Part shown: in pieces, positions 13,071 to 19,924 of the stretch | How the letters are laid out: the number at the start of each line of letters is the position of its first letter | How positions within the stretch are numbered: the first letter of the stretch is position 1 | Assembly (NCBI GenBank): GCA_964607485.1 | Contig: CAZSKP010000013.1 | Coordinates: 55,799 to 119,798, forward strand | From: an uncultured bacterium | GTDB lineage: Bacteria; Abyssobacteria; SURF-5 | DNA: 64,000 nucleotides | Direction of reading: 5' to 3' | Made by a program: the position numbers and the translations under genes | The notes under the pieces: generated by a model | Databases searched by the model: none | Seen by the model: the letters and a program-made list of their open reading frames with translations, nothing else | What the model was told of the DNA's origin: nothing

Positions 13071-13100
13071 ATTATAGCGTAACGCAGAATCTTGTGTCAA
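13071..13100 (-). promoter_or_regulatory. sigma70 promoter for rnr-argCJB
   Basis: Minus strand TTGACA-18 nt-TATAAT. Confidence 0.75.
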
Positions 13101-13180: not shown

Positions 13181-13711
13181 TCATTCCACGAGTATCAGCC
13201 CGTGGAAGAACCATTCGTCTTCGCTGGATTTCTTCAAATCTGCGGGGATACTCGCGTTTCTGAGCGTGGCGAAGACATCTATGCCAAGCGCTTCCATCGA
13301 TGGGCGCGCCTCTTCGGGATGACGGCAGGGTTCATCGGGGTCGGTGCACTCGGCGCACAGCATACACGGCCCGCCGCGCAGCCCGAGCGCCAGATAGTGG
13401 CCCAGGAGAAACGCCTTCCGCTCGACCGCGACGACGATCTTGTTTATCTCATCCGGGCGCGTCTTCACCAAAACTCCCCACCGGTACCGCCTGAGGGCGC
13501 GCTCGAACTCCTGTGGGAGCGGCGTGTTGGGCGGGCACATCTTCGATGAATCGTATGAAGGGCAGCCGTACAGGCACTTGTAGTACACGCGCTCGTCGGT
13601 GACCACTTTCTCGACGGGGATTCTCTTAGCGACGACGGCTCCTTGTCGTTTCGCGTAGGCCTCGAGTTTTTGCAGGTCTTTTTCGATGTCCGACGCAGAC
13701 TTTCGTTTCAT
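13181..13711 (-). CDS. DUF2284-like Cys-rich metal-binding protein
   Basis: KC.YGC..Y....CPP, GPC.LC..C, CRHP..ARPSMEA.GIDV; start moved to ATG 13711. Confidence 0.8.
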   Translation of the reverse strand: MKRKSASDIEKDLQKLEAYAKRQGAVVAKRIPVEKVVTDERVYYKCLYGCPSYDSSKMCPPNTPLPQEFERALRRYRWGVLVKTRPDEINKIVVAVERKAFLLGHYLALGLRGGPCMLCAECTDPDEPCRHPEEARPSMEALGIDVFATLRNASIPADLKKSSEDEWFFHGLILVE

Positions 13712-13722
13712 CGTTGAAATGG

Positions 13723-14883
13723 TCACAGGCCCGAGCGCTGTTTTATCTTCGCGAGCACCTCTTCGGCGATCGCCTCCGCCGCCTTGCGCGGAAGCATGCG
13801 GCGCTTGCGGCTGGCCGCTATGACGGTAGCCGTCGCGTTCCTGATCCGACGGCCTATTTCCTGCATTATCGCCTGTGGGTCGAACGGGCACTGGCCCGAC
13901 AGAAGCAGCCCGAATCCGCACGCGGCTCCGGCATTGGCGATGAAATCGGGAACCAGCGCGACGCCCATGTGGTGCAGTTGCTTTTCCGCCTCGACGGTCA
14001 CGGGAATGTTCGCCGCCTCGATCACGAGTTTCGAGGAAATTCGTCGGACGTTGTGCTTTGTTATCGTGTCGGCGATTGCTGCCGGAATCAATATGTCCGC
14101 GTCCAGCGACAGCCAATCCTCGCGCCGATGCTTCTCATAGTCGAAGTCGAGCTTGCTCCTGTCAATCGTCCCGAATTCATCCCGCGCGGCCATCAATTGC
14201 TCGAACGGCAGGCCGCCGCTCCGAAAGATTGTTCCCTCCGCGTCGGCGACGGCCACTATCTTGGCGCCCTTTTGGCTCAGAAACTCCATCGAGCTGGCCC
14301 CCACCGTGCCGAATCCCTGAATTGCGATGGCGCTCTCCAATATGTTCATGTCGAGCTGGCGGCACGCCTCCTCAGCGCACTCGGCGATGCCGTAGCCGGT
14401 CATCAGCTCTTCCAGGTTCGGGTCGTCGGATTGCAGGTCGAGATTGTCGGGCAGATCGATGGTGATTCCTCTCGAGGACATCTTCTTCTTTGCGACCGCA
14501 ATCGGACTGACACCGGCGGAACGGTAGAGGTTGCCTACGTCGGCCCGCGTCGTGCCCATGTCCTCTCCCACGAGGTACATCTCGGCCAGAAGCGGCTTGA
14601 TCAATTTGCCAAAATTTTTGATGACCTCCGCTTTGTCGGGCCGGCGCGGGTCGGCGTCGATGCCCGACTTGGCGCCGCCGATGGGAATCTGAGACGCGGC
14701 GAACTTGTGCGTCATCGTCCGGGCGAGCCGTGCGACCTCGCGCTCGGTGAGGCCCTTGCGCATCCGCAGCCCGCCCGCCGAGAGTCCGTTGACGAGCGAG
14801 TCTACAACCACGAAGCCCTTGATTCCCAACGCCTCATAGTGTATCTGCAGCTTGTAGATCGGGCGCCTGACTTTTGCCGCCAT
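13723..14883 (-). CDS. Glu/Leu/Phe/Val dehydrogenase
   Basis: GGLRM, LARTMTHK, GGAKSGI, IQGFGTVG, EAAN, PDFIANAG. Confidence 0.9.
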   Translation of the reverse strand: MAAKVRRPIYKLQIHYEALGIKGFVVVDSLVNGLSAGGLRMRKGLTEREVARLARTMTHKFAASQIPIGGAKSGIDADPRRPDKAEVIKNFGKLIKPLLAEMYLVGEDMGTTRADVGNLYRSAGVSPIAVAKKKMSSRGITIDLPDNLDLQSDDPNLEELMTGYGIAECAEEACRQLDMNILESAIAIQGFGTVGASSMEFLSQKGAKIVAVADAEGTIFRSGGLPFEQLMAARDEFGTIDRSKLDFDYEKHRREDWLSLDADILIPAAIADTITKHNVRRISSKLVIEAANIPVTVEAEKQLHHMGVALVPDFIANAGAACGFGLLLSGQCPFDPQAIMQEIGRRIRNATATVIAASRKRRMLPRKAAEAIAEEVLAKIKQRSGL

Positions 14884-14929
14884 CTGACCCTCCTATACGA
14901 GATTGTTTGGGGTGGTGGACAGACGCTGT

Positions 14930-15541
14930 TTATTTCCTTATGTGCTCGACGCCGAGTTGAAAGGCCCGCTGGTTGACCGAAAGGATCTTCTGGGGTATGA
15001 CCTCCTTCAGCACGTCCGCGAACTTCTCGACGGGGATGGGCACCCAGCCCGACCCGGCCAGCGCACCGACCATGACGACGTTCGAGGCCATCGCCTCACC
15101 GGCCTCTCTCGCCAGCTCCGTGCTCTCGACGACCTTGACGGTCTCAGCCATCTCGTCCAGCCGCGCAAGAAGCACCTCCACCGGGGGATACTCCTGCGCT
15201 CCGTAGAGCACCATGAGCGGATAGTTGGGCCGAGGATTGACGATGATCTTCGTGCCGGGATTGGCGTAGGTGGCCGCCACGCGCAGGGTTTCCATCGGTT
15301 CGAGCCCGACTATTACGTGGGCCTTTCCCTCGGGAATCAACGGGCCGAACTGCGTCTCTTTGGAAAGCCTGACGTGACTCATGACGGCGCCGCCGCGCTG
15401 CGACTGGCCGTACGTTTCGCCGATGATTGCGCGCAGGCCGTCGGCAATCGCGGCGGTGGCGAGGAGGTGCGAGGCCAGAATGTTTCCCTGGCCGCCGACG
15501 CCCGTTATGATCACATTGAGACAGTCGCCGTTTGATTTCAT
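14930..15541 (-). CDS. iorB: Indolepyruvate:ferredoxin oxidoreductase beta subunit
   Basis: GVGGQGNILAS, ETYGQSQRGGAVMSHVR; ATG overlaps the iorA stop. Confidence 0.9.
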   Translation of the reverse strand: MKSNGDCLNVIITGVGGQGNILASHLLATAAIADGLRAIIGETYGQSQRGGAVMSHVRLSKETQFGPLIPEGKAHVIVGLEPMETLRVAATYANPGTKIIVNPRPNYPLMVLYGAQEYPPVEVLLARLDEMAETVKVVESTELAREAGEAMASNVVMVGALAGSGWVPIPVEKFADVLKEVIPQKILSVNQRAFQLGVEHIRK

Positions 15542-17478
15542 GGCTGCAACTCCCCGGCCTTCTCGACCTCGATGGCGCCCTGCGGACAGAGGTAAGCGCA
15601 CACGCCGCAGCCTGTGCACACCACGTCGTCCACCTTGGCGCGCTGATTCTTCTCGTCCCATATCAGAGCCGGACACCCGAACACACGCGTGCAGAATCGC
15701 GCGCAGCCGCATTCATCTCCAAGGCATTTCTCCGGGTTAATGGTCACCTTGTCTTTCTTCTTCTTCCGGCTTTCGATCAGTCCGCACGTTCGGCGCAGGA
15801 TGAGTATGCTCGATTCGTCCGCTTGCATGAGATCGTAGAGCGTTTCGACAGCCTCGTCCACCTCGAACGGGTCGCGAATCTCGACGCGGAAGCCGAGCCC
15901 CCTGCAGACCTCTTCTATGTTCACCTGGGTCGTGGGATTGCCCTGGGCGTTGACGCCGATGCCGGGATGCGGCTGAAAGCCGGTCATCGCGGTCGCGGCG
16001 TTGTCGAGCACGACGCTGGTGAATTTGGCTCCGTTGTAGCGTGCGTTGACGAGCGCCGGTATGGTGGCATGAAAGAAGGTGGAATCGCCCATCACCGCGA
16101 CCACCGGCTGGTCGAACTCGAATTTCCCGAGGTTGCCCAGGCCGCATGCCACTCCCGCTCCGGAACCCATGCAGTGCAACGTGCGGTTGAGGAACCAGCC
16201 CGACCGTCCGGCGCCCATGCCGTAGCAGCCGATGTCGCCCAGCACGAAACCGCCCCGGCCGTCGAGCGCGAGCGCGTTCTTCATCACCCAGTAAGAAGCG
16301 CGGTGCGGGCAGCCGGCGCAGAAGGCGAGGTCGCGGGCCGCGGTGTATTCGCCCAGGAGCTTCTGCACGCGCTCGGCGTAGTCGGGGCTTCGCGGCTTAT
16401 ACTCTATGCCCTTTACCTCGGCGAGCGCCTGCAGCACGATGTCGGGGTCGATTTCTCCGAGCGCCGGCCCAAACCTGCTCCTGACGTGACCGGAGCCCTT
16501 GCCGAAGAACTTGATGACCTCGAGCTCGCTGCCGATGTAGTCGGCGAGCAGGCTCTTCACGTTCTGCTCCAGGAACGGGTCGGTCTCTTCAACGAACAGC
16601 ACCCGTTTGACGCCCTTGAGGTTGTCGATGATGAATTGATTGGGCAGCGGCCACGTCGTTCCGAGTTTCAGGATTCCGACCTCTTTGTCGAGCGACAGCG
16701 TGCGGACGGCCTCCAGCGAGTAAAGCCAACCGGAGCCCGAGGTGATGATGACCAATTCCGCGCCTGCGGGGCCCACATATTGGTTGAATTTGGATTTCTC
16801 GAACAGCTCGCGCGCCTTCTCCAGCTTGCCGTGGAGCACAGAGTGAGTGACCGTGCCTAACGACAGGAACCGGTCGTACGCCTCAAAGCGTGGGCTCGGA
16901 CGGGCGCGGTTGATCTGGCCCAGCGAGAGGTCGCCGCGTGCGTGCGAGATGCGTGTGACGCTGCGGATGATGCACGGCAGCTCCAGCTCCTCCGAGAGCT
17001 CGAAGGCGCGGCGTGTCATCTCCTTGGCCTCCTCGATGCTGGCAGGCTCGAGCAGAGGCGCGTCGAGCATGCGCGCGAATGCCCGCGAGTCCATCTCGTT
17101 GTTGCTGCAATGTGCGGATGGGTCGTCGGCGACGACCAGCACGAGGCCGCCCTTGTTTCCCGACATGATGACCGACATCAAGAAGTCGGAGGCCACGTTG
17201 ATGCCGTTCTGTTTCATGGCGCAGAGCGCGCGAAGCCCGGCGAACGAAGCGCCCGCCGCCGCCTCCAGCGCGACTATCTCGTTGGTGGACCATTCGGCGT
17301 GGTGCCCGAAGTTTTCGGCCACCTCCGGCAGGGCCAACGTTCCGATGATCTCGGAGGAAGGCGAGCCCGGGTATGCGGCACAGAAGCCGACCCCCGCCTC
17401 GATTGCCCCGCGGGCAATCGCCTCGTTGCCCATCATCAGGACATGTTTTCCCGGTTCATCGAGCAGAATGCTCAACAT
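15538..17478 (-). CDS. iorA: Indolepyruvate:ferredoxin oxidoreductase alpha subunit
   Basis: GNEAIARGA, YPGSPSSEI, FCAGCPHR, GDIGCY, GDSTFFH TPP motif, C-terminal ferredoxin. Confidence 0.93.
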   Translation of the reverse strand: MLSILLDEPGKHVLMMGNEAIARGAIEAGVGFCAAYPGSPSSEIIGTLALPEVAENFGHHAEWSTNEIVALEAAAGASFAGLRALCAMKQNGINVASDFLMSVIMSGNKGGLVLVVADDPSAHCSNNEMDSRAFARMLDAPLLEPASIEEAKEMTRRAFELSEELELPCIIRSVTRISHARGDLSLGQINRARPSPRFEAYDRFLSLGTVTHSVLHGKLEKARELFEKSKFNQYVGPAGAELVIITSGSGWLYSLEAVRTLSLDKEVGILKLGTTWPLPNQFIIDNLKGVKRVLFVEETDPFLEQNVKSLLADYIGSELEVIKFFGKGSGHVRSRFGPALGEIDPDIVLQALAEVKGIEYKPRSPDYAERVQKLLGEYTAARDLAFCAGCPHRASYWVMKNALALDGRGGFVLGDIGCYGMGAGRSGWFLNRTLHCMGSGAGVACGLGNLGKFEFDQPVVAVMGDSTFFHATIPALVNARYNGAKFTSVVLDNAATAMTGFQPHPGIGVNAQGNPTTQVNIEEVCRGLGFRVEIRDPFEVDEAVETLYDLMQADESSILILRRTCGLIESRKKKKDKVTINPEKCLGDECGCARFCTRVFGCPALIWDEKNQRAKVDDVVCTGCGVCAYLCPQGAIEVEKAGELQP

Positions 17479-18596
17479 TATTTCGGCCCTCCTTCCGAGA
17501 ACAACTTCCGCTGCTCTTCGTCGATCCTGAGGTAGAGCAGGGGAGAGCTTTCATTGCCGCGCTCGGCCAACTCCTTTATTACCCGGCGCTTCTTGGCGCT
17601 GACCGCCTCGCGCAGAATCGCCTCGCGCTCGGCGGGGAATTTCTTAGTGGCTATGGCCTTCGCCTTCAATGCGTCCTGCACGAGTTTCTCGCCCGCCTCG
17701 CTCCGAACCAGCATGGTGTTCCAGTCGTCCTGCCATTCGGTCGAGCCGAGCGAGACATCGGCAAGTTCGGCGGTCACGTCGAAACACACCTGGCAGGTGG
17801 GCCGGATGAAGCTCTTTACCTTGTCGATCGGAACCCGCGCGGTGCCGCCGTTGGTGTAAACGATGAAGTCGTCGTTCTTCGGGATGTCTATCTTCTTAAT
17901 CCGCTTCAGGTCCACCTGATCGGTCAGGTAGGACGCATACCTGCGGTATTCCAGCGCCCAGAGGCAGAAGAGGCCTATCAGCAGACGGATGTTCTTCACC
18001 TCGGGACGGTCGTCGTAGCGTTGCATCTTGCGGATGGCCGTCACCTGGCAGGGCCTGCCGACCACGGCTATCTTCTCGCCCGTGCTAAGGAGTTCGTTCA
18101 ACATCGACAGCGTCGGGGCGGCGGTGTATTTCGACCCGGCGCAGGCCAGCACCTCTTCCCGGTTCCGCGCCACGGCCGGCCGCGGCAGCACGCTCTTGCG
18201 GTCCGAGTACTTGGTCAAGAGCGCCGCATCGACCACGCCGCTTTCCAGCGCGTGAATCACGAGCGCCGACACCACTCCGCCATATTGGCCCGCTGCGTGG
18301 ACGACTTTGTCACTCGCTTTCACCATGCTCAGCGACCGGTACGAGCCGAGCACAGGGTCGGCTCGTTTTGTTCCGAACGCCATCTCATCCAATGCGTCGA
18401 GGTCTGTCGCCGTGCGAGGACAGAAGCGGTAGCAGCGTCCGTCGCTCCGGCCGCACCGCTCGATGATGGCGACCTTCTCCTCCATCTCCTTTATGTACGG
18501 GCACAGCCCCACGCACATTCCGCAGCCCGTGCACAGGTCGGCCTGCTGAACCTCCGCCTGAAGCTCATCCGGCCCCTTGTTCGTCAGTTGTTCCAT
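17478..18596 (-). CDS. FrhB/FdhB-family (F420-dependent hydrogenase/dehydrogenase beta-like) Fe-S flavoprotein
   Basis: CTGCGMCVGLCP, GQYGGVVSAL, AGSKY, VGRPCQ, IGLFC, CQVCFD..AELADVS.G; GGAGG RBS. Confidence 0.88.
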   Translation of the reverse strand: MEQLTNKGPDELQAEVQQADLCTGCGMCVGLCPYIKEMEEKVAIIERCGRSDGRCYRFCPRTATDLDALDEMAFGTKRADPVLGSYRSLSMVKASDKVVHAAGQYGGVVSALVIHALESGVVDAALLTKYSDRKSVLPRPAVARNREEVLACAGSKYTAAPTLSMLNELLSTGEKIAVVGRPCQVTAIRKMQRYDDRPEVKNIRLLIGLFCLWALEYRRYASYLTDQVDLKRIKKIDIPKNDDFIVYTNGGTARVPIDKVKSFIRPTCQVCFDVTAELADVSLGSTEWQDDWNTMLVRSEAGEKLVQDALKAKAIATKKFPAEREAILREAVSAKKRRVIKELAERGNESSPLLYLRIDEEQRKLFSEGGPK

Positions 18597-18719: not shown

Positions 18720-19808
18720 CTAGAGCCGCCCCTCGCGCATAATCTTAACGCCTTTGTCGGAGAGGCGGTCGAAGAATTGGACGGGCTCGATGCACATCTC
18801 GGGGGCCATCACGCCGCGTCGCGTGATCGTACCGTCGAGCAGCATCAGCGCGCCGACTGCGCATGGGGTGGCCGTCAGCGTGCGGATGCGGTCGATCATG
18901 TTGAAAACGAGGTGGCGCTCCTGCCCGTCTTTCTTCCCGAGTATGTCGAGACGCAAACCTGAGTGTTCGACGCCGCCGACGCTGAAAAGCCCTTGAATCT
19001 TATGGATGATGGCGGCGACCGAGTCGATCCTCTTTCGCGAACTCGTGAGTCCGAGCGAGCGGATGAGGCGCAGGGACTTGTTGTTCCACGGTGGGCTGAT
19101 GCCGCCCCTGACGGTGATGTTGTTTGCCTCGATCGTTTTCGGGAGGGTGATCGGTTCCGGGTGTCCGAACAGAAATGCCGGCATCTCGCCCAGCGGGGCG
19201 GGGAACTCGACCATTTCCATCTCGCTCCATGCCGGGAGCATGATGCGTTCGCCGTTCCTGAACATGGGTTTCTGGCCCGTTATTCCGTGGAGCGTGTGCT
19301 TGAGCGCGGCCAATCCCTTGGCGTCGCCCGAGCCGACGACCCAAGCGATTTTTATGTCGTCGATTTCGTCCAGAAGGTCTGCGCCCAGCCGTGCGGCGAC
19401 GTTGGACATGCCCGGGTTCCATCCCATTCCCGTTATGACTGTCACTCCGTTCCGTCGGGCCGCTTCGTTGAGCGCGAACAATTTCGAGAGCGGTTCGGGG
19501 TCGTCGCAGATGTCGATGTAGTGGGTTCGGGTCTCGATGGCCGCTGTGGCAACGTTGGCGCCGTATTTATAGAAAGGCCCGGCGCAGTTTATGACGAGGT
19601 CGAAATTTTCGAAGGCGGCGGTGAGCGTCGCCCTGTTGTGCGCATCGGCCTGAAGAGCGCCGACGTAGCCTTTAAAGGTGCGGCATACCGAGCGCGCCTT
19701 GTTCAGGTCGCGGCCGGCAATTGCAACCTGATGGGAGGAAAATTCGACGAGCTTCTCGACAACGCAACTGCCGATGTCGCCGTATCCGCCGACTACGACG
19801 ATTTTCAC
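18720..19808 (-). CDS. Saccharopine dehydrogenase-like NAD(P)-dependent oxidoreductase
   Basis: IVVVGGYGDIG, INCAGPFY, YIDICDD, GMGWNPG; probable GTG start at 19808. Confidence 0.85.
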   Translation of the reverse strand: MKIVVVGGYGDIGSCVVEKLVEFSSHQVAIAGRDLNKARSVCRTFKGYVGALQADAHNRATLTAAFENFDLVINCAGPFYKYGANVATAAIETRTHYIDICDDPEPLSKLFALNEAARRNGVTVITGMGWNPGMSNVAARLGADLLDEIDDIKIAWVVGSGDAKGLAALKHTLHGITGQKPMFRNGERIMLPAWSEMEMVEFPAPLGEMPAFLFGHPEPITLPKTIEANNITVRGGISPPWNNKSLRLIRSLGLTSSRKRIDSVAAIIHKIQGLFSVGGVEHSGLRLDILGKKDGQERHLVFNMIDRIRTLTATPCAVGALMLLDGTITRRGVMAPEMCIEPVQFFDRLSDKGVKIMREGRL

Positions 19809-19924
19809 CCTGCTTCTCGCTTCCTCAGTCCGACTACCCGGAGTTATATCACACCATTCCCCCCGTAACATACTACCATATTTGGCTCTTTTTTTAAACC
19901 CGAAACATTATGGGGGCGGATGAT

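Follow-up and report, generated by a model that had tools for sequence, protein, structure and literature searches.

An FrhB-like gene of the kind labelled 'F420 hydrogenase beta subunit' was found in a 64,000-nucleotide (nt) stretch of DNA from an uncultured bacterium (Abyssobacteria, SURF-5; GenBank assembly GCA_964607485.1, contig CAZSKP010000013.1, positions 55,799 to 119,798), hereafter the window. It is likely to encode an iron-sulphur (Fe-S) flavoprotein that serves an indolepyruvate oxidoreductase (IOR)-type enzyme as its own electron outlet. Together with the products of the adjacent genes iorA and iorB it would form a three-subunit 2-oxoacid oxidoreductase, with an acceptor other than coenzyme F420 in this bacterium. 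The gene is the first of five co-directional minus-strand genes in 13181..18596, and the domain names of all five were matched by Pfam:

17478..18596, minus strand, FrhB-like Fe-S flavoprotein, 372 amino acids (aa); PF04422, PF04432 and Fer4
15538..17478, minus strand, IorA-type alpha subunit, 646 aa; POR_N, PFOR_II, TPP_enzyme_C and Fer4
14930..15541, minus strand, IorB-type beta subunit, 203 aa; POR gamma-like domain (PF01558, 110 bits)
13723..14883, minus strand, ELFV-family amino-acid dehydrogenase, 386 aa; ELFV_dehydrog_N and ELFV_dehydrog (PF02812 and PF00208)
13181..13711, minus strand, DUF2284 protein, 176 aa; PF10050 (134.5 bits, gathering cut-off 25)

The FrhB-like gene and iorA overlap by 1 nt (TAATG), and iorA and iorB overlap by 4 nt (ATGA), which suggests translational coupling of the three genes. 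The dehydrogenase gene follows iorB after a gap of 46 nt containing AGGAGG, and the DUF2284 gene follows after 11 nt. The start of the FrhB-like gene is preceded by GGAGG ahead of the ATG at 18596, and the relatives begin at the same methionine in the alignment. Thus the coordinates and junctions bear out the five-gene arrangement of the initial annotation, with its overlaps and its gaps below 50 nt. The same holds for its statement on hydrogenases: the Pfam analysis of the neighbours shows no adjacent gene for a catalytic subunit of hydrogenase or formate dehydrogenase, and no hydrogenase gene was found within about 5 kb.

Conservation of the FrhB-IorA-IorB unit

A word-indexed protein search for relatives of the FrhB-like protein yielded 709 scored matches, and a scan with one genome per species yielded at least 567 confirmed FrhB-like stretches. 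The best 80 of these, with 36-81% identity to the query, were examined as loci; where 81 loci are mentioned below, the window is included. In 78 of the best 80 loci iorA lies directly downstream of the FrhB-like gene on the same strand. The two exceptions are L071, which ends at a contig edge, and L015, which has no iorA. An iorB gene follows iorA in 70 loci, and seven of the ten misses are cuts at contig ends. The loci span Bacillota, Chloroflexota, Thermodesulfobacteriota, Myxococcota, Rokubacteria, Spirochaetota, Bathyarchaeia, Hadesarchaea and Ca. Alkanophaga, and each of the other neighbour families recurs in at most 8 of the 80. Since iorA is retained directly downstream in nearly all of these loci, the arrangement is far beyond chance, and the conserved core consists of the first three genes. 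The linkage, on whose conservation the initial annotation had staked its proposal, is therefore retained.

Within the window's own family the FrhB-like gene is present in eight of nine other genomes, and outside that family in one of 21 sampled genomes. It is the sole PF04432 gene of its own genome (4.70 Mb, 97.5% complete).

The recurrent extra neighbours of the unit are genes for a GlcD-like flavin adenine dinucleotide (FAD) oxidase, LutB-like and LarA-like proteins, an IlvD-type dehydratase, an L-aspartate-oxidase-like flavoprotein, RidA and the ELFV dehydrogenase. All of them are makers of 2-oxoacids, in support of a role in substrate supply, and their diversity points to varied 2-oxoacids as candidate substrates.

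Genes for LarA-like, IlvD/Edd-type dehydratase, LutB-like (LUD and Fer4) and HpaB/AbfD-like proteins lie downstream of the trio in L018, L020, L029 and other Bacillota loci, which hints at a hydroxy-acid or sugar-acid route feeding the oxidoreductase there. Other genes may also be inserted into the unit. A nucleotidyltransferase/HEPN pair resembling a toxin-antitoxin system lies between iorA and iorB in a deltaproteobacterial module (L046:10053-10788), an S-adenosylmethionine-dependent methyltransferase and a CdhD-like/Fer4 protein are encoded at the same place in L014 (4173-5896), and an open reading frame (ORF) resembling an outer-membrane beta-barrel protein separates the FrhB-like gene from iorA in L013.

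The FrhB-like protein and its relatives

The FrhB-like protein scores 75 bits with PF04422 (gathering cut-off 22) and 136.3 bits with PF04432 (cut-off 23.3), and thus belongs to the FrhB/FdhB superfamily. It stays below the equivalog cut-offs both of FrhB proper (TIGR03289, 177.2 bits against 331.5) and of FpoF (116-118 bits against 444-475). In the alignments, an N-terminal ferredoxin-like domain with invariant Cys22, Cys25, Cys28, Cys32, Cys48, Cys55 and Cys59 is followed by an FrhB-type reductase domain with invariant Cys183, Cys211, Cys268 and Cys271, and then by a C-terminal helix.

The best solved match of the family profile is 8RIU_B, with 300 bits over the full length (query residues 7-358 against chain residues 7-359). 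Further matches are FrhB (217 bits), 8RJA_E (214 bits), Fsr, HCAR (100 bits) and FdhB. The AlphaFold2 model of the protein (mean predicted local distance difference test score, pLDDT, 91) superposes on 8RIU_B with a template-modelling (TM) score of 0.88 and a root-mean-square deviation of 1.9 Å over 349 columns, at 33% identity. In excerpts of the report describing it, 8RIU_B is the zeta subunit in the F420-reducing CODH (carbon monoxide dehydrogenase) of Ca. Ethanoperedens thermophilum, built of a ferredoxin domain that has two clusters, a [4Fe-4S]/FAD domain of the FrhB type and a C-terminal extension for dimerisation, and it wires a ferredoxin-type CODH to the flavin (Lemaire, Wegener, Wagner 2024, PMC11493965).

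The same three parts, namely the two-cluster ferredoxin domain, the FrhB-type [4Fe-4S]/FAD domain and the C-terminal extension, make up the FrhB-like protein in about 370 aa. We propose that it is the third subunit and electron outlet of an IorAB-type enzyme. Its role would be that ascribed to zeta in the same excerpts, namely of a plug-in reductase through which the electrons of a 'ferredoxin-dependent' enzyme are diverted and reach a hydride carrier, and its predicted docking in the complex model is likewise via the N-terminal Fe-S domain. However, the partner is of the IorAB type rather than CODH or Fwd, and the hosts are mostly bacteria, and 37 of 46 host genomes have no F420 biosynthesis genes. 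The acceptor is therefore probably different.

A similar association is described in excerpts of a study of ANME-1 archaea, in which POR and CODH genes have FrhB paralogues as neighbours (Chadwick et al. 2022, PMC9012536). One of them, FrhB6, is also encoded with a 2-oxoacid:ferredoxin oxidoreductase and was read as a dedicated route by which electrons of 2-oxoacid oxidation reach a hydride carrier. However, in the text of that study FrhB6 pairs, by genomic prediction, with a four-subunit PorABDG in F420-using archaea, whereas the window encodes a two-subunit IorAB in a bacterium without F420 genes. FrhB6 was considered as a prior case of an FrhB-IorAB unit and rejected, as in the portions of the study that describe it the gene sits with PorABDG and not with IorAB.

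The FrhB subunits of F420-reducing [NiFe] hydrogenases (3ZFS, 4OMF, 6QGR, 9R51) have a homologous reductase domain (217 bits, TM on target 0.84-0.88), but they have no N-terminal ferredoxin domain and work with FrhA and FrhG, which are absent here. HCAR, the 7-hydroxymethyl chlorophyll a reductase (5DQR), is a more distant case (100 bits, TM 0.72, only 18% identity). It resembles the FrhB-like protein as an FrhB-family Fe-S flavoprotein that works without F420, but it has no 2-oxoacid:ferredoxin oxidoreductase partner. HCAR acts on a chlorophyll derivative, with ferredoxin as the donor.

No description of the FrhB-IorAB unit was found in the literature searched. The unit is best described as the principle of a plug-in FrhB-type reductase in a new setting, with an IorAB partner and mostly bacterial hosts: the class of enzyme is known, and the combination is undescribed in that literature.

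A separate clade of IorA

IorA contains the POR_N, PFOR_II and TPP_enzyme_C domains and a C-terminal Fe-S domain, and IorB is a POR-gamma-like beta subunit. Both score below the equivalog cut-offs of their canonical families (IorA, TIGR03336, 580.7 bits against 650.9; IorB, TIGR03334, 181.6 bits against 205.8). The domain order, the thiamine pyrophosphate (TPP)-binding motif, the C-terminal Fe-S domain and the IorB partner are those of canonical IorAB. The TPP motif of the window IorA is GDSTFFH followed by DN; GDSTF.H and DN are invariant in the alignment, as is the cysteine set.

The differences from canonical IorAB are an upstream FrhB-like gene, inserts that add about 50 residues, placement in a separate clade, and a remodelled C-terminal domain of the 2x[4Fe-4S] type. 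In the latter the pattern is C585-x4-C590-G-C592-x3-C596-x5-C602-P plus C621, C624, C627 and C631, so that the first cluster motif has five cysteines, where canonical IorA has C-x2-C-x2-C-x4-CP. All 75 FrhB-linked rows of the alignment have the extra Cys592, and none of the 12 canonical rows does. Altogether 67 positions of the linked IorAs are absent from canonical IorAs, including 403-408 (L-x-L-D-G-R), 424-427, 593-595 and 599.

In 15 module-bearing genomes, the FrhB-linked IorAs (about 640-670 aa) score 531-625 bits, below the cut-off, whereas all 12 IorAs above it (about 590-600 aa) have no FrhB-like neighbour. In a tree of 93 IorA rows, the 75 linked ones, including that of the window, form one side of a branch with a support of 94 in the Shimodaira-Hasegawa-like approximate likelihood ratio test (SH-aLRT), and the 18 unlinked IorAs of the same genomes fall outside. 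The labels linked and unlinked require one change on the tree, a value reached by none of 500 shuffles.

The window's own genome encodes further IorAs. A full-length one of 643 aa (L091, contig C69; 35% identity) lies behind MetF/MetV-like genes and has no FrhB-like neighbour, and a third (L092/L093, contig C20) is split into two ORFs.

Predicted contact between IorA and the FrhB-like protein

A complex was modelled from IorA 1-646 and FrhB-like 1-350. The ipSAE score was 0.67 (0.66, 0.69 and 0.67 in individual runs), as compared to 0.00 for the best of three controls. In a calibration that is only rough, since the alignments were our own, 116 of 157 solved complexes and 2 of 215 mismatched pairs attained this mark. 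The partner has a pLDDT of 87, and at least 95% of contacts are shared among the runs.

In the model, FrhB-like residues 30-54 of the Fe-S domain, with Cys32 and Cys48, face IorA residues 400-407, 428, 544-548, 591-599 and 630-632. The linked-only positions are enriched in this predicted interface: they account for 7 of its 18 IorA residues, with 1.9 expected (hypergeometric p 0.0012), and the extra Cys592 sits in the contact loop. This supports a dedicated docking surface for the FrhB-like protein on linked IorAs. The synteny, the separate clade, the complex model and the position of the interface on clade-specific inserts all favour the three-subunit IOR with an FrhB-family Fe-S flavoprotein that had been postulated in the initial annotation.

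The electron acceptor

The initial annotation considered F420 as an acceptor and called for a search of the genome for F420 genes. In the own genome no match was found to cofD, cofE, fno or one F420-dependent luciferase-like monooxygenase (LLM) model, and nothing above 27 bits was found for cofC. Two CofH-like matches (352 and 349 bits) were considered as candidate Fo synthases and rejected, as they are MqnE (505 bits, cut-off 434.55) and MqnC (503.1 bits, cut-off 428.1). The mqnE and mqnC genes are adjacent (L002 and L003, contig C8) and belong to the futalosine route to menaquinone; their products mimic CofH in family searches.

The same absence is common among other hosts of the module. Among 46 module-bearing genomes, credible cofD genes are present in nine and cofG in eight of the same set; seven of the nine cofD matches are above the cut-off, and the other two are split at contig ends. 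The cofD-containing hosts are archaea (all four tested), Rokubacteria (both tested), two Dehalococcoidia and one 'delta proteobacterium'. Neither gene was found in the remaining 37 genomes, which include four cultured isolates and two records labelled chromosomes. Because of this pattern and the lack of cof matches in the own genome, F420, judged by gene content, is not the general acceptor of the FrhB-IorAB family, and it is very unlikely to be the acceptor in this bacterium. Thus F420 has to be dropped from the initial proposal for this organism.

Other 2-oxoacid oxidoreductases with added flavoproteins provide an analogy. In the NADH-dependent phenylglyoxylate dehydrogenase PadEFGHI and in pyruvate:NADP+ oxidoreductase, an enzyme of the 2-oxoacid:ferredoxin type is combined with a flavoprotein that passes electrons to NAD(P)+. 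The flavoprotein modules of these enzymes belong to other families (GltD-like and CPR-like). By this analogy NAD(P)+ is possibly the acceptor, and it is the leading candidate. PadE (NF045762) is a weak match of the window IorB.

The following scheme may be suggested. IorA and IorB would perform TPP-dependent oxidative decarboxylation of a 2-oxoacid to acyl-CoA. The electrons would not be released to free ferredoxin; they would pass via the third [4Fe-4S] cluster of the FrhB-like protein to its predicted FAD, which would donate a hydride to a soluble acceptor of two electrons. F420 would not be this acceptor in the present bacterium, since the genome has no route to make it, and NAD(P)+ would be the first candidate. 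In the window's lineage the 2-oxoacid would probably be supplied from a neutral amino acid by the ELFV dehydrogenase, a putative non-glutamate enzyme.

Alternative explanations

All solved close relatives of the FrhB-like protein (8RIU_B, 8RJA_E, FrhB and Fsr) are F420 enzymes, and its cofactor-binding motifs are well conserved in the alignments. One possibility is that it reduces F420 (or Fo) after all, with the deazaflavin taken from the surroundings. This is natural for the nine of 46 hosts with cofD, among them all the archaea and Rokubacteria tested. However, the own genome lacks recognisable cofC, cofD, cofE, cofG/H, fno and F420-LLM genes, the hosts without cofD and cofG include cultured isolates, and the FrhB family has F420-independent members such as HCAR, so that for the window we regard F420 reduction as improbable. 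HCAR itself, which matches both the profile and the model, suggests another role. HCAR and BciB, members of the FrhB family, act on organic substrates, and the FAD site of the FrhB-like protein might similarly reduce an organic metabolite, with electrons of 2-oxoacid oxidation arriving within the complex or via ferredoxin. The absence of F420 from most hosts and of a recognised NAD(P) motif from the protein would agree with that. On the other hand, the protein resembles the coenzyme-reducing zeta (33% identity, TM 0.88) far more than HCAR (18%, TM 0.72), and it is conserved while the neighbours vary widely across phyla, as would be expected for a general acceptor rather than for a pathway-specific metabolite. 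Reduction of a metabolite is thus unlikely.

The direction of electron flow may be questioned as well. 2-Oxoacid:ferredoxin oxidoreductases are reversible, and in methanogens an anabolic role has been ascribed to IOR-type enzymes. ELFV dehydrogenases are also reversible, and the gene order suits either direction. The FrhB-like protein could then feed electrons from a hydride donor into the reverse reaction, from acyl-CoA and CO2 to a 2-oxoacid, with the dehydrogenase aminating the product. However, reductive carboxylation (about -500 mV) is out of reach of NAD(P)H or F420H2 (about -320 to -340 mV) unless there is extra coupling, the neighbourhood encodes no bifurcating partner, and the recurrent neighbours in other genomes are catabolic makers of 2-oxoacids. 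The same redox argument appears, for FrhB-POR clusters, in excerpts of Chadwick et al. (PMC9012536). A reversed enzyme is unlikely. Finally, the FrhB-like protein and IorAB might share only their regulation, with IorAB reducing free ferredoxin as canonical IOR does. The lack of a fused form would agree with this, but the gene order is kept in 78 of the best 80 loci across phyla while the surroundings change, the linked IorAs stand apart as a clade that has inserts and one more invariant cysteine at the predicted contact, and the complex model stands out from its controls. Independent function is highly improbable.

Several points weigh against the interpretation of the FrhB-like protein as an IOR subunit with a non-F420 acceptor. 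No NAD(P)-binding motif was identified in it. Incompleteness of metagenome-assembled genomes can hide cof genes, and uptake of F420 from neighbours is possible. The complex score is the model's own confidence, and to stay within the size limit IorB was left out and the FrhB-like protein was cut at residue 350. In a circular-shift control of the interface enrichment, which is only moderately strict, 28 of 645 shifts also reach seven positions. The IorA tree was built by a quick method (LG+G4), its support of 94 falls short of the star threshold, which is 95, and flags were raised for several long rows. The linkage holds for this FrhB subfamily, that is, for the best matches of the query at 36-81% identity, and not for all FrhB proteins. 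No FrhB-IorA fusion was found, which is weak evidence: a search of longer proteins gave six matches, all of them other fusions (GltD-like, MTD and pyruvyl-transferase types, 29-34% identity) and none with IorA. An apparent fusion in L049 was rejected, as there is an in-frame stop between the two genes. Finally, in excerpts of PMC10229431 the F420 site of FrhB proteins is a positively charged cleft that is not defined at the residue level, with no F420-bound structure.

Accessory genes

An ELFV dehydrogenase gene follows iorB in seven of the 81 loci, namely in the window, in two of its five closest relatives and in four Chloroflexota. It is a lineage-variable accessory. Thus the term 'amino-acid oxidation operon' of the initial annotation is apt locally but does not extend to the module in general.

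The dehydrogenase scores at most 161 bits with the equivalogs of glutamate dehydrogenase (GDH), for which the cut-offs are 536-822. It has GLSAGGLR where T. maritima GDH has GPAKGGIR. In GDH the lysine of this G-x-x-K-G-G-x-R motif binds the gamma-carboxylate of the substrate. As all seven module-linked copies have alanine at the lysine position, whereas the unlinked copy in L143 retains lysine, the module-linked enzymes, by their predicted binding site, are not glutamate dehydrogenases. The dehydrogenase probably acts on a neutral amino acid as a local 2-oxoacid supplier. In the alignment, the dehydrogenases of the window's family have an insert of about 20 residues (residues ~128-155), absent from the Chloroflexota copies.

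The DUF2284 protein has seven invariant cysteines in the alignment (46, 50, 59, 116, 119, 122 and 129) and is probably a small redox protein that binds a metal or a cofactor. It has no sequence match in the PDB. The best fold matches of its AlphaFold2 model (pLDDT 92.7) are reductive dehalogenase and flavin mononucleotide nitroreductase-like chains, with Z of 5-7.4, under the caution line of 8, so that a nitroreductase/dehalogenase-like fold may serve as a lead only. Module-linked copies of the gene are confined to L008-L012 and to genomes of the window's own family, and 25 of 47 module-bearing genomes have no DUF2284 gene at all. It is a lineage-specific accessory to the module, and the pathway context that the initial annotation hoped to give this family is accordingly weak.

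Other copies of DUF2284 were observed. In L143 (G008:C25) a true GDH-type ELFV gene with the lysine kept lies directly before a DUF2284 gene, away from the module, and forms a second, independent ELFV-DUF2284 adjacency. The own genome has three more copies (C55:7105-8436 and C1:98253-98684), two of them in tandem.

Genomic surroundings

The following features lie upstream of the FrhB-like gene:

18720..19871, minus strand, saccharopine-dehydrogenase-like NAD(P) enzyme, 383 aa; PF03435 and PF16653
20181..23333, plus strand, porGDAB (porG, porD, porA, porB), four-gene pyruvate/2-oxoacid:ferredoxin oxidoreductase; identified by Pfam

The saccharopine-dehydrogenase-like gene is located 123 nt upstream of the FrhB-like gene on the same strand. 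It is also found ahead of the FrhB-like gene in L009-L012 (72-78% identity), at distances from 140 nt to 2.2 kb, and is absent from the other loci. Its conservation as a neighbour is thus limited to the window's family, and it is possibly a member of the operon. Between the two genes the minus strand showed no promoter-like site, the counts of candidate sites being not above those in shuffled sequences (3 against 1.7 and 10 against 8.4). The porGDAB genes are divergent to the saccharopine-dehydrogenase-like gene, so that two different 2-oxoacid oxidoreductases are encoded less than 10 kb apart.

Downstream of the DUF2284 gene there are genes for RNase R and then argCJB. A perfect sigma-70 consensus (TTGACA, 18 nt, TATAAT) was observed at 13071..13100 on the minus strand, past the DUF2284 stop and ahead of the RNase R start. 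This suggests a separate promoter for RNase R and an end of the operon with DUF2284.

The data sets listed as containing the window stretch are all DNA metagenomes, from sediment, marine sediment and hot springs, mostly with small shares; there is no RNA data set among them.

Implications

In excerpts of a sediment study, frhB is listed among the hydrogenase genes of organic-matter degraders (PMC10116835), and bacterial 'frhB' is routinely read as a marker of hydrogenase or F420. If the FrhB-like protein is a flavoprotein subunit of IOR, such metabolic reconstructions are wrong for many anaerobes, among them Dehalococcoidia, Desulfotomaculum-like Bacillota, syntrophs, Rokubacteria and the window's own sediment lineage. 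The principle of the plug-in reductase, shown in 2024 for archaeal CODH and Fwd enzymes in the excerpts of PMC11493965, would then extend to 2-oxoacid oxidoreductases and to bacteria. This raises the question of what an FrhB-type flavoprotein reduces when F420 is absent.

A broader and more tentative suggestion, which we put forward with some doubt, is that soluble 2-oxoacid:NAD(P)+ (or other hydride-carrier) oxidoreductases, composed of an IorAB-type enzyme and an FrhB-type flavoprotein, form a widespread and so far undescribed class that operates in hundreds of F420-less anaerobic bacteria. Cultured hosts of the module exist, among them Desulfotruncus arcticus DSM 17038, Desulfovirgula thermocuniculi DSM 16036 and Desulfocucumis palustris NAW-5. 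If such a class is real, coenzyme specificity independent of F420 is a general property of the FrhB fold, and the hosts would bypass free ferredoxin in the oxidation of 2-oxoacids derived from amino acids and hydroxyacids.

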